Sequence record: PQ741806.1
Origin: Pseudomonas phage Pa_AttikonH10
Direction: 5' to 3' (one strand)
DNA length: 64,000 nt
The translations under genes and the position numbers were made by a program. Shown here piece after piece: positions 28,776 to 29,681 of the stretch; the stretch's first letter is position 1; the number at the start of each line of letters is the position of its first letter. Below the pieces are notes generated by a model. The model saw only the letters and a list, made by a program, of their open reading frames with translations, searched no databases and was not told the DNA's origin.

Positions 28776-29269
28776 CGTTATGTTCAGTATGGGTCGTTAA
28801 TCCATACCCGGTAGTATAATTACCACATGATAATTACCACCTGCTGCATGTCACCATGCAGACCAGACTATATCTTCACCCTTCCTTTCAGAGTGGGGTG
28901 TCTCCCATTTCGAGTCACTTGACCCTACATCCTATTTCTAGGACCGGTGCACCTGATACCGTAATAGTCGTTGAACCTTCTCCTATTCCTAAATGGAATG
29001 TTACGGAGCTTGGCTGCTGATTGGCCCTACCTAATCTTTTTCAAACCTTGGCTTTGTCTTTCGACTCGCAGTGGTAGATTAGTTTAACAGGATATCCCAG
29101 CAATTAGAGAGAACTCACCCCAATGATTACTCACTGGGGGAACTAGACTTGATTAACTTAATAAGGTATTTATCAAGCACTTCATATTCAATTTTAAATG
29201 AAGCCGGATCAAAGACGGACACTACTCCGTTTTGTTCCATTGTTTTTACCTTATTTAGTTAGTTGTCCA
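28776..29269 (-). ncRNA. Group I self-splicing intron (494 nt) splitting the NADFDGD motif of beta-prime
   Basis: P AAUUGCUGGGAUAUCC, Q AAUCAGCAGCC, R GUUCAACGACUAUUACGG, S AAGAUAUAGUCUGGUCUGCAUGGUGACAUGCAG. Ends CUGAACAUAACG. Contains a 37-aa mini-ORF (29128..29241) with RBS. Confidence 0.75.
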
Positions 29270-29377
29270 TTAGGCGCTTTAAGGCATAATACTGACATGC
29301 TGATTGAATTATCATTAATGTCATCTTTTACTTTAGTAATAAAGAATTGTTGAGTAGATCCACGTTGAAGGGTCGGC
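29270..29377 (-). CDS. RNA polymerase beta-prime N-terminal subunit, exon 2 (36 codons)
   Basis: PTLQRGSTQQFFITKVKDDINDNSISMSVLCLKAPN matches E. coli APTLHRLGIQAF...HPLVCAAYN. Confidence 0.75.
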
Positions 29378-29681
29378 GTTGTGTTCAGATAAGTTCGTTA
29401 AGCTTATCCCGTCTATTAATAATAGACAGCTGCATGTCACCATGCAGACCAGACTATATCTTCACCTTTGGCATTACCCAGTAAGGTGCTCCCCATTTCG
29501 AGTCACTTGACTCTACTCTACTCGGTTCACTTTCGTGCCTTTCGATAGTCGTTGAACGTTCAATCCATTTCTGGAAAGCTTCGCTGCTGATTGTCTCATT
29601 GAGATGTCCCAGCAATTAAAGGAGTTTTGTCGAGTAATATTTCTATTACAAGGAAACCATTTAGTATTAATATACAAATTA
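29378..29681 (-). ncRNA. Group I self-splicing intron (ORF-less, 304 nt) in the beta-prime N gene
   Basis: Same P/Q/R/S cores as the beta intron. 5' junction AAU|UAAUUUG. 3' end CUGAACACAACG. Confidence 0.8.

Follow-up and report, generated by a model that had tools for sequence, protein, structure and literature searches.

The td intron of phage T4 is a group I intron of subgroup IA2 that carries I-TevI, with the open reading frame (ORF) of the endonuclease located in P6a. As Michel and Westhof are said to have set out in 1990, subgroup IA introns carry two additional helices, P7.1 and P7.2, which separate the 5' strand of P7 from the 3' strand of P3, and Landthaler and Shub reportedly described in 1999 three group I introns in a single gene, orf142 of the Staphylococcus phage Twort, together with exon skipping. 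Closer to the locus presented here, introns in gp55/gp56/gp56.1 and gp71/gp72/gp73 of phage phiKZ were predicted by Mesyanzhinov et al. in 2002, a prediction available to us through its citation in a later study (PMC10914365), and laboratory deletion of the endonuclease genes orf72 and orf179 leaves phiKZ viable (PMC12676376). Birkholz et al. (2024, PMC11620839) described the gp210 intron of PhiPA3, which interrupts a gene for a beta subunit of the virion RNAP.

Here, we analysed a stretch of 64,000 nucleotides (the window) from Pseudomonas phage Pa_AttikonH10 (PQ741806.1), a phiKZ-like phage that is 100% identical with phage Bobae. Its nvRNAP beta'N gene, the homologue of phiKZ gp55, lies on the minus strand and consists of three exons and two group I introns (slashes within residue or nucleotide strings mark splice junctions):

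30818-29682, minus strand: exon 1, 379 codons ending ...TFHRN (AAT at 29684-29682), from the ORF list
29681-29377, minus strand: intron 1, 305 nt, an ORF-less, td-like group I intron of subgroup IA at site 1 (N379/P380)
29376-29269, minus strand: exon 2, 108 nt, a 36-codon micro-exon encoding PTLQRGSTQQFFITKVKDDINDNSISMSVLCLKAPN (PTLQRG...LKAPN), from translation
29268-28776, minus strand: intron 2, 493 nt, a group I intron at site 2 (N415/A416 in NADFDGD)
28775-28557, minus strand: exon 3, 72 codons and the stop, ADFDGDQLNLTLMPDV...EEWLKS, beginning ADFDGDQ, from translation
Predicted junction peptides of the spliced product: ...TFHRNPTLQR / ...GMGCTFHRNPTLQR; APNADFDGDQLNLTLMPDVYLTK

The N-terminal regions of phiKZ gp55 and PDB 7OGP_A are identical to the exon 1 product, and the in-frame TAA directly 3' of exon 1 (29681-29679) belongs to intron 1. 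Exon 2, whose product forms part of the catalytic double-psi beta-barrel, follows exon 1 without a break in phiKZ gp55 and 201phi2-1 gp107. Exon 3 encodes the Mg-binding aspartates; its phiKZ counterpart is annotated separately as PHIKZ056.1, and the record name of PDB 7OGP_A carries both 'PHIKZ055' and '...PHIKZ056.1'. Translated after splicing, the gene encodes 487 aa (55.6 kDa by calculation), of which 486/487 match PDB 7OGP chain A, and the published numbering of DFDGD as residues 417-421 (PMC8287921) fits the spliced product only. The exon structure proposed in the first-pass annotation, with exon 1 ending in TFHRN, a 36-codon micro-exon and exon 3 opening with ADFDGDQ, was recovered at every coordinate on the minus strand, and its view that the micro-exon is present in the mature protein agrees with phiKZ gp55, 201phi2-1 gp107 and PDB 7OGP_A, all of which contain the exon 2 residues. 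Current GenBank entries list the beta'N exons as separate CDSs, so that the gene appears as a truncated CDS named 'RNA polymerase beta subunit' accompanied by several small ORFs that are spurious.

A third intron of the window interrupts the second nvRNAP gene considered here:

14955-14649, minus strand: beta intron, 307 nt, ORF-less, in the nvRNAP beta gene (gp71-73 homologue), splitting FHGG/KGV

All three introns matched Rfam model RF00028 across its full length (1-253): intron 1 at 29679-29430 (88.9 bits, E 2e-21), intron 2 at 29164-28844 (79.0 bits, E 2e-18) and the beta intron at 14931-14703 (84.2 bits). With scores of 79.0-88.9 bits against a gathering score of 50 bits chance is excluded, and the covariance-model search therefore bears out the earlier assignment of both beta'N introns to group I. 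All three 5' exons end in U, all three introns end in ...AACG with a terminal G, and their excision restores the frames of gp55 and gp71-73; the ligated exons equal PDB 7OGP gp55 and gp71-73 and, likewise, the uninterrupted alleles of phiKZ, 201phi2-1 and KEN49. At the position of P7.1/P7.2 the covariance-model alignment places inserts of 33-55 nt, which fold as two hairpins in all paralogues, with compensatory changes in P7.2 across all of them; the helices, P7.1/P7.2 included, are kept in paralogues and orthologues, between which compensatory differences occur. By the presence of P7.1/P7.2, the beta'N introns belong to the td-like subgroup IA.

Intron 1 begins with UAA and ends in CTGAACACAACG / ...CUGAACACAACG, and it folds into P2, P5, P6/6a, P7.1/7.2, P8 and P9-9.2. 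A minimum-free-energy fold of the 5' exon with the 5' part of the intron predicts a guide sequence:

29653-29659, minus strand: intron 1 internal guide sequence, UGGUUUC

The P1 predicted from this fold, GAAAU/UA paired with UGGUUUC, would span the 5' splice site with a U.G wobble there. For the beta intron, the 5' splice site was corrected to ...CAU GGU GGU/AAUUAAUAUCC, and the fold predicts a P1 in which GGU/AAUU pairs with AAUUGCC, again with U.G at the splice site. PDB 7OGP_C reads FHGG-KGV and the natural intron-less allele of KEN49 is shorter by exactly 307 nt, which together place the beta intron at 14955-14649 with a 5' exon ending in GGU. The candidate boundary at 14952, with a 5' exon ending in AAU, was ruled out by the same two observations. 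The earlier statement that all 5' exons end in AAU is thus right for introns 1 and 2 and wrong for the beta intron.

Intron 2 is already known as the phiKZ gp56 intron predicted in 2002, to which it is 97% identical if the deleted ORF and an exchanged P9 module are left aside. Its 3' end reads CTGAACATAACG / ...CUGAACAUAACG, and its N/ADFDGD junction is confirmed by PDB 7OGP_A and the uninterrupted 201phi2-1 gene, so the intron does split the catalytic motif, as first proposed. The length excess over intron 1, earlier given as 190 nt, is 188 nt by our computation; the ORF remnant accounts for only ~100 nt of it and the remainder comes from a long extension of P5 and from P9.1, which is larger. 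Neither inspection by hand nor minimum-free-energy folding yielded a convincing guide sequence for intron 2: the P1 candidates are only 3-4 bp (UAAU/GUUA, with GUUA at intron nt 112-115, or AAU/GUU, with GUU at intron nt 125-127; the slash here separates the two strands), the minimum-free-energy fold favours an intron-internal helix, and the sole nearby phiKZ substitution (G to A in AAGUC) provides no covariation in support of P1.

We propose that the beta'N pre-mRNA very probably carries two self-splicing, td-like introns that are relics of mobile elements and exchange modules by recombination. The early beta'N gene would be transcribed into one pre-mRNA holding two subgroup IA ribozymes, each of which would fold, take up exogenous guanosine and excise itself through two transesterifications, joining exons 1, 2 and 3 into the 487-aa, 55.6-kDa protein with NADFDGD restored. 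Because intron 1 opens with an in-frame UAA, unspliced RNA would yield only a 379-aa fragment. The contrasting possibility, that the interruptions are unspliced and the gene is fractured into three exon products (or exon 1 alone) acting as separate polypeptides, finds a parallel in the naturally split RNAP subunits of jumbo phages and in the separate GenBank CDSs, and ONT-cappable-seq of phiKZ, under the conditions of that study, reported the gp56, gp72 and gp179 introns without any spliced reads (PMC10914365). Westerns show Gp55 as two bands (PMC10612078), which might be the products of spliced and unspliced RNA. A literature search for RNA-level proof of phiKZ splicing found none, only predictions, protein-level evidence and this one negative long-read report. 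We nevertheless consider fracture extremely improbable: exon 2 has neither a start codon nor a ribosome-binding site of its own, high-scoring and structurally intact ribozymes lie exactly between the exons, and relatives encode the same protein uninterrupted. Moreover, native gp55 purified from infected cells is 56 kDa and gp71-73 is a single 74-kDa chain (PMC4666361), the former agreeing with the 55.6 kDa calculated for spliced beta'N. The PDB chains derive from recombinant constructs and hence reflect the splice model of their depositors, with which the 56-kDa native band and the uninterrupted alleles of 201phi2-1 and KEN49 agree independently.

The first-pass annotation had also argued from the shared features of the three introns for their recent spread among RNAP genes by homing or reverse splicing. 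A MAFFT alignment of the three introns misregistered P3-P6 of intron 2; pairwise alignments, folds of anchored segments and a table of mismatches in a sliding window took its place. Overall, intron 1 is 83.5% identical to the beta intron, with which it shares an exact block of 75 nt (P3-P7), whereas near-identity of intron 2 to the others is limited to blocks of 34-38 nt; the catalytic cores are accordingly close to identical in the former pair and, for intron 2, only within these short blocks. The 3' terminus CUGAACAYAACG and the P7-P9 core are common to the whole td-like family, T4 td included (T4-type td has ...CTGAACATAATG at its end and shares the P9), and intron 1 has matches in 715 phage records, so that these family-wide traits do not speak for recency. 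Comparison with the beta intron from the same genome gives 0 mismatches across nt 64-138 of intron 1; the Churi orthologue of intron 1 (98% identical) differs in P6a, inside this 75-nt block, and other site-1 alleles show 5-8/20 differences in the stretch.

A fresh copying of the beta intron into site 1, or of intron 1 into the beta site, by reverse splicing or endonuclease retargeting with a common AAU guiding insertion, would account for the exact block, the 83.5% identity and the filling of site 1 in a minority of strains only. We think it quite unlikely, since the beta 5' exon ends in GGU rather than AAU, the guides are unlike (UGGUUUC in intron 1, AAUUGCC in beta), and P2, P7.1, P8 and P9.1 are unlike as well; the differences in guide, P2 and P8 already show that intron 1 is not a fresh reverse-splicing copy of beta, which leaves the earlier proposal of recent spread unsupported. 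P1, P2 and P8 of intron 1 are, in addition, common to a second site-1 allele (the fMGyn, SL2 and KEN49 type) with a different P4-P6 domain, which makes a site-1 intron older than the identical block, and the Churi orthologue differs exactly in P6a within the block, pointing to a local conversion tract. Purifying selection on a common catalytic core, with no exchange at all, appears distinctly improbable: many unrelated phage introns, T4 td among them, do show 90-97% conservation of the P7-P9 block and 3' terminus, but the 75-nt P3-P7 block takes in loops and the peripheral P6a and is unconserved in td and in other same-site alleles, and the two P9 modules, both found across insertion sites, and the short and long P5 forms combine irrespective of insertion site. 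The identical blocks form a mosaic, and judged from the alignments this mosaic fits recombination or gene conversion between resident introns and not fresh transposition. Under such exchange, the introns resident at site 1, site 2 and the beta site would swap modules, leaving identical core blocks.

Comparison of intron 2 with phiKZ gp56 also clarified the small ORF within it:

29240-29127 including the stop, minus strand: mini-ORF, 37 aa, inside intron 2, from comparison with phiKZ gp56

The ORF had been recognized as 37 aa with its own ribosome-binding site, both of which hold, at coordinates off by one (29128..29241). It consists of gp56 aa 1-18, YEV (matching gp56 aa 91-93) and gp56 aa 319-334, the last 16 residues; residues 19-318 are almost wholly deleted, YEV being the sole survivor between the two ends, and the gp56 ribosome-binding site (UAAGG) is retained. 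Full-length phiKZ gp56 contains NUMOD4, HNH_3 and three NUMOD1 stretches in Pfam, while a Pfam search with the 37-aa product gave no match, no HNH motif and no NUMOD. The profile search that had been suggested, against HNH/GIY-YIG fragments, consequently gave no link, and the connection to gp56 comes from the direct comparison, in which both ends of gp56 match as expected of the endonuclease remnant first suspected. By this comparison, the mini-ORF is a remnant of the gp56 HNH homing endonuclease and not a member of the family. A functional small protein, such as a maturase-like or regulatory peptide, could explain why start codon, ribosome-binding site and frame were kept through two deletions and why the sequence is identical in Bobae, T2P and SL2. 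We judge this very improbable given that no domain is left, that the Churi intron underwent an independent, out-of-frame deletion of the endonuclease ORF (leaving a 21-aa stub) and that full-length gp56 is interrupted by premature stops in ANB1 and KEN49. The kept ends, moreover, fall on elements of RNA structure: a helix in which the ribosome-binding site is sequestered, P2 and the guide-sequence region, the latter two holding the last codons and the stop codon of the mini-ORF. Independent deletions of the Bobae and Churi types retain the same ~85 nt at the 5' end and ~50 nt at the 3' end.

Both beta'N introns of the window lack a functional endonuclease, and intact HNH ORFs occur in relatives such as Churi, fMGyn, SL2 and phiKZ, the ORF sitting in the P1 loop in the introns of Churi, fMGyn and phiKZ. 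Site 1 is empty in phiKZ, T2P and 201phi2-1, a precise absence with uninterrupted TFHRNPTLQRG; intron 1 is ORF-less in ~7/45 related genomes and bears an HNH ORF in 2 others. Phages that share at least 94% identity differ at site 1, which is empty, ORF-less or HNH-bearing, and in the beta gene, which contains an intron (with or without gp72) or, in KEN49, lacks one; a third site is polymorphic for presence and absence as well. The beta'N gene has at least three insertion sites (N379/P380, N415/A416 and D421/Q422), with micro-exons as short as 18 nt (KEN49) and probably 13 nt (Goslar). At the Goslar locus Rfam at the gathering threshold found no match, one core scored 46.9 bits in a relaxed search, and a second core was recognized by eye only. 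This distribution supports ongoing intron turnover at the beta'N sites. The site-1 intron, for which a literature search found no published description, is an extra intron in a minority of strains, and the case as a whole is one of real and largely ordinary mobile-intron turnover.

We infer that both introns of the window descend from mobile elements with an HNH nicking endonuclease gene in the loop of P1, after the 5' splice site and before the guide, and that intron 2 would have kept the ends of gp56 that overlap needed RNA (the P1 extension or ribosome-binding-site helix, the guide-sequence region and P2). Neither would be able to home alone. Such introns may persist because precise loss would be rare in the context of essential active-site codons and probably also because an occupied site would be immune to the endonucleases of co-infecting relatives, a competitive benefit of ORF-less introns suggested by analogy with PhiPA3 gp210 (PMC11620839).

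Given the three or more insertion sites and the very short micro-exons, the ~130 nt coding around NADFDGD of chimallivirus nvRNAP beta'N could be a recurrent battleground of intron-encoded nickases, in which ORF-less introns immunise, residents convert each other and an exon-2-skipped isoform might arise; this reading is tentative and, on balance, unlikely. If it were true, ORF-less introns would be kept as immunity against the endonucleases of co-infecting relatives and resident introns would repair and diversify one another by gene conversion, while in-frame skipping of exon 2 might further yield a form of beta'N that is catalytically dead and acts as a regulator or in a dominant-negative manner. 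The findings leave the understanding of group I introns unchanged. In practical terms, the joined beta'N CDS corrects the GenBank annotation of an essential polymerase subunit in therapeutic-candidate phages, and the corrected beta-intron splice site matters for annotation likewise. The phiKZ-like phages offer a natural series of empty, ORF-less, intact-HNH and decayed-HNH states at several sites in two polymerase genes, with clear module exchange among paralogous introns, and thus a tractable system for the homing cycle and for intron-mediated phage competition (cf. PhiPA3 gp210) in phages that separate transcription from translation.

Compared with known systems, T4 td is 76-78% identical to the window introns in its 3' half and shares with them P7.2, the P7'-P9 block with its GUGA loop, the design of P9.2, a 3' terminus (CUGAACAUAAUG) that is the same as their CUGAACAYAACG, and an in-frame UAA start after a 5' exon ending in U. 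The P3-P6 domain differs, the endonuclease of the phiKZ-like introns is of the HNH/NUMOD type and that of td GIY-YIG, the phiKZ-like ORF sits in the P1 loop whereas the I-TevI CDS of RB3 td is internal to the intron, and the host gene encodes an RNA polymerase subunit rather than a nucleotide-metabolism enzyme. Twort orf142 resembles beta'N in having several close, related group I introns and short internal exons in one phage gene, and differs in host, gene and endonuclease content. As a separate observation, skipping of beta'N exon 2 would drop exactly 36 codons, in frame. The PhiPA3 gp210 intron is alike in that it is of group I, carries an HNH endonuclease and interrupts a chimallivirus RNAP gene at conserved catalytic residues, and in being polymorphic between related co-infecting phages; it differs in lying in the other (virion) RNAP gene at another site, and gp210 is intact and a weapon against phiKZ, whereas the window introns are endonuclease-less (PMC11620839). 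The nearest counterparts are the phiKZ gp56 and gp72 introns, direct orthologues of intron 2 and the beta intron at the same sites with ~97-98% identity outside the ORF, and the spliced gp55 and gp71-73 proteins are the same (PDB 7OGP). Relative to phiKZ, the window has lost both endonuclease genes, with gp56 reduced to 37 aa and gp72 absent, carries a different P9 module in intron 2, and has the additional site-1 intron that creates the 36-codon micro-exon.

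Two group I introns interrupt the nvRNAP beta'N gene, a phiKZ gp55 homologue that encodes the beta'N subunit of the non-virion RNA polymerase. One lies between N379 and P380 (site 1) and the other between N415 and A416 of the catalytic NADFDGD motif (site 2). An Rfam scan of the whole window returned exactly three matches above gathering score, all on the minus strand and all covering the full length of RF00028 (group I intron): these two introns and a third in the nvRNAP beta gene (the gp71-73 homologue; hereafter the beta intron). The covariance-model scores confirm the two beta'N introns proposed in the first-pass annotation, whose coordinates and anatomy, read on the minus strand, were right apart from a one-base offset in the mini-ORF, a 37-aa reading frame in intron 2.

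31213-33093, minus strand, chimallin (nuclear-shell protein) gene, upstream neighbour of the beta'N gene
30818-29682, minus strand, exon 1 (379 codons, last residues TFHRN)
29681-29377, minus strand, intron 1 (305 nt)
29679-29430, minus strand, RF00028 match in intron 1 (88.9 bits)
29376-29269, minus strand, exon 2 (108 nt, PTLQRG...LKAPN)
29268-28776, minus strand, intron 2 (493 nt)
29240-29127, minus strand, mini-ORF within intron 2
29164-28844, minus strand, RF00028 match in intron 2 (79.0 bits)
28775-28557, minus strand, exon 3 (72 codons and stop, ADFDGDQ...EEWLKS)
14955-14649, minus strand, beta intron as corrected from KEN49 and 7OGP chain C (307 nt)
14931-14703, minus strand, RF00028 match in the beta intron (84.2 bits)

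By megablast, positions 28400-31000 are 100% identical to Pseudomonas phage Bobae and 94-99.9% identical to some 45 further jumbo phages of the phiKZ-like group. The spacer of about 400 nt between the chimallin and beta'N genes (30819-31212) holds only tiny ORFs, which the Bobae and KEN49 annotations call hypothetical proteins. Downstream of exon 3 (27346-28416, minus strand) the window order is gp58.1 homologue (62 aa, 28416-28228), gp57, gp58, against gp57, gp58, gp58.1 in phiKZ, a local rearrangement beside the intron-bearing gene. In the Bobae GenBank record beta'N has no joined CDS and appears as an 'RNA polymerase beta subunit' truncated to 379 aa; within the two introns (28776-29681) the record also lists, across both strands, five small CDSs labelled 'hypothetical protein', which are almost certainly spurious.

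Conceptual splicing yields a beta'N of 487 aa (55.6 kDa) that is identical at 486/487 residues to chain A of PDB 7OGP, a molecule named 'PHIKZ055 | ... PHIKZ056.1'. Three lines of evidence fix the junctions independently of that construct. Exons 1 and 2 are contiguous in phiKZ (...TFHRNPTLQRG...), whose allele naturally lacks the site-1 intron, and in the more distant 201phi2-1 gp107 both sites are uninterrupted (...TFHRNPTLQRG...LKAPNADFDGDQ...). Thirdly, gp55 is a 56-kDa protein in native nvRNAP from infected cells (PMC4666361) and the catalytic motif is numbered 417-DFDGD-421 by cryo-EM (PMC8287921), which only the spliced product fits. Exon differences among six strains were synonymous in every case. 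The strongest counter-evidence to splicing is a long-read transcriptome of phiKZ (PMC10914365) in which none of the introns carrying gp56, gp72 or gp179 gave spliced reads; in light of the protein-level evidence, limited sensitivity seems to be the cause. According to a figure 1 legend, 'Gp55 migrates as two bands' on westerns of infected cells (PMC10612078), and, speculatively, the two could be the product of spliced RNA, 487 aa, and that of unspliced RNA, which in phiKZ would be 420 aa long.

Folding the intervening segments between anchors on the conserved core strands gave one architecture for all paralogues and orthologues: a GNRA-closed P2, a short or long P5, P6/P6a, P7.1, P7.2, P8, P9, P9.1 and P9.2. 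Subgroup IA is recognised by its P7.1/P7.2 insert. Compensatory differences are numerous across the introns, with P9.2 stems of GAUAAG/CUUAUC, GGUAAG/CUUACC, GUAUGG/CCAUAC and GUAUCA/UGAUAC. Intron 1 folds into a P1 of GAAAU^UA / UGGUUUC (the caret marking the exon boundary), and no clear P1 helix was found for intron 2 on folding its 5' exon with the 5' part of the intron. The proposed AAU end common to the three 5' exons does not hold for the beta gene, as KEN49 carries beta as a single uninterrupted CDS reading FHGGKGV, exactly 307 nt shorter, and 7OGP chain C reads FHGG-KGV at the junction. Both place the beta 5' splice site at ...GGU^AAUUAAU..., 3 nt upstream of where the reading frame would most obviously put it, so that the spliced protein reads FHGG^KGV and lacks the Asn; the corrected boundary folds into a clean 7-bp P1 (GGU^AAUU / AAUUGCC) that includes the canonical U.G wobble.

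Intron 2 and the gp56-carrying intron of phiKZ are orthologues, about 97% identical outside the ORF. The mini-ORF consists of gp56 residues 1-18, YEV and the last 16 residues, the middle being gone, and this match to both ends bears out its earlier reading as a homing endonuclease remnant. In Pfam, full-length gp56 matches NUMOD4, HNH_3 and, over three stretches, NUMOD1; a Pfam profile search of the mini-ORF product found no domain left, and its origin from an HNH_3 protein instead emerges from the comparison with gp56. The 37-aa form also occurs in T2P and SL2, Churi has suffered an independent out-of-frame deletion across a GAATGG direct repeat that leaves a 21-aa stub, and otherwise full-length gp56 copies in ANB1 and KEN49 contain premature stops; as a protein, then, the remnant is not conserved. 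Both independent deletions keep the same ends (5' about 85 nt, 3' about 50 nt), which hold the ribosome-binding site, paired in the minimum-free-energy fold with CCUUAUUAA immediately 3' of the ORF, as well as the guide-sequence region and P2, whose loop contains the ORF stop codon. Since these are RNA elements, RNA structure accounts for their retention better than any protein function.

Comparison at site 1 found no intron 1 in phiKZ or T2P, while the ORF-less 305-nt form is present in about 7/45 phiKZ-like genomes (Bobae, PhiPizzaParty, PA_ZH1, kmuB, KEN19, LC and PaZh_1). In Churi and GUMS this intron, at 98% identity, houses a 277-aa HNH_3 ORF within its P1 loop, and a second site-1 allele with a long P5 and a different P9 (fMGyn, ANB1, SL2 and KEN49) carries a 273-aa HNH ORF, missing from the KEN49 copy. 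Overall identity between intron 1 and the beta intron is 83.5%, with an exact match over 75 nt from P3 to P7. A sliding-window comparison of intron 1 against ten other introns revealed a mosaic (minus strand, intron 1 numbering):

nt 1-60, P1, guide sequence and P2, specific to site-1 alleles
nt 64-138, P3 to P7, identical to the beta intron of the same genome
nt 171-190, P7.2, identical to intron 2
nt 191-220, P8, specific to site-1 alleles
nt 221-250, P7'-P9, identical to both the beta intron and intron 2 of the same genome

Across nt 64-138, Churi departs in P6a and other site-1 alleles show mismatches at 5-8 of 20 positions; at nt 221-250, the other P9 module is common to phiKZ-type intron 2 and fMGyn-type intron 1. 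P6a (window 29562-29581, intron 1 nt 101-120) reads UCCA-GAAA-UGGA, identical in the beta intron, against CCUAUUA-GAAA-UAAUAGG in the otherwise 98% identical Churi intron, a switch suggestive of a short conversion tract. Intron 1 is not newly copied from the beta intron, because guide sequence, P2 and P8 differ; the mosaic fits recombination or gene conversion between introns that were resident at different sites, within a genome or during coinfection. Near-identical genomes nonetheless vary in intron presence and ORF state at site 1, site 2 and the beta site, which shows that turnover is both real and recent. The earlier argument for recent spread should give way to one of ongoing gain, loss and inter-intron recombination.

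The beta'N gene of KEN49 (PP456877), a phage with an intron-less beta allele, has three Rfam-confirmed group I introns (1623-1922, 3080-3401 and 3449-3752 in L011, the compared KEN49 locus), the third starting immediately 3' of ADFDGD and leaving an 18-nt micro-exon (GCTGATTTTGACGGAGAT, approximately 3452-3469) between introns 2 and 3. The E. coli chimallivirus Goslar (MK327938; 2737-4526 in L014, its compared locus) has an annotated group I intron after ...YNADF (NADF^) with a NUMOD1/HNH_3 ORF, scoring 46.9 bits in Rfam, slightly below gathering score, and a second, candidate group-I-like core recognized by eye downstream (approximately 4190-4526). Joining TT, CGACGGTGACGCT and ATG there would give NADFDGDAMNNHIVPD, with a 13-nt micro-exon. 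With these additional introns, the beta'N catalytic motif looks like a recurrent insertion hot spot.

We propose that the pre-mRNA self-splices by the guanosine-initiated two-step pathway to give the 487-aa subunit, and that translation of unspliced RNA would end at the UAA opening intron 1. Homing in relatives would be driven by HNH nickases whose genes lie in the P1 loop, and this strain, having lost both endonuclease genes, may represent a late stage of the homing cycle. An occupied site is probably immune to the relatives' nucleases, by analogy with PhiPA3 gp210 (PMC11620839), and the introns may persist because imprecise loss would wreck an essential active site. Viability of phiKZ after laboratory deletion of orf72 and orf179 (PMC12676376) is consistent with natural ORF-less introns being functional.

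As a sensitive blastn query, intron 1 matched 715 phage records. T4-type td introns are 76-78% identical to its 3' 140 nt by blastn and, in direct alignment, have P7.2, the P7'-P9 block and the terminus ...CUGAACAUAAUG in common with it. The CUGAACAYAACG terminus and a 34-38-nt identical block had been taken as signs of recent spread; since td shares them, they are family-wide traits and not markers of recency. Neither intron 2 nor the beta intron is new, both having been recognised in phiKZ: the gp56, gp72 and gp179 introns were predicted in the original genome paper, as cited in PMC10914365, and a recent study (PMC12676376) treats the gp56 intron as a locus for an intron-encoded endonuclease. 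A literature search for the site-1 intron found no published description, and intron 1 with its 36-codon micro-exon is an undescribed, yet ordinary, additional member of the td-like family.
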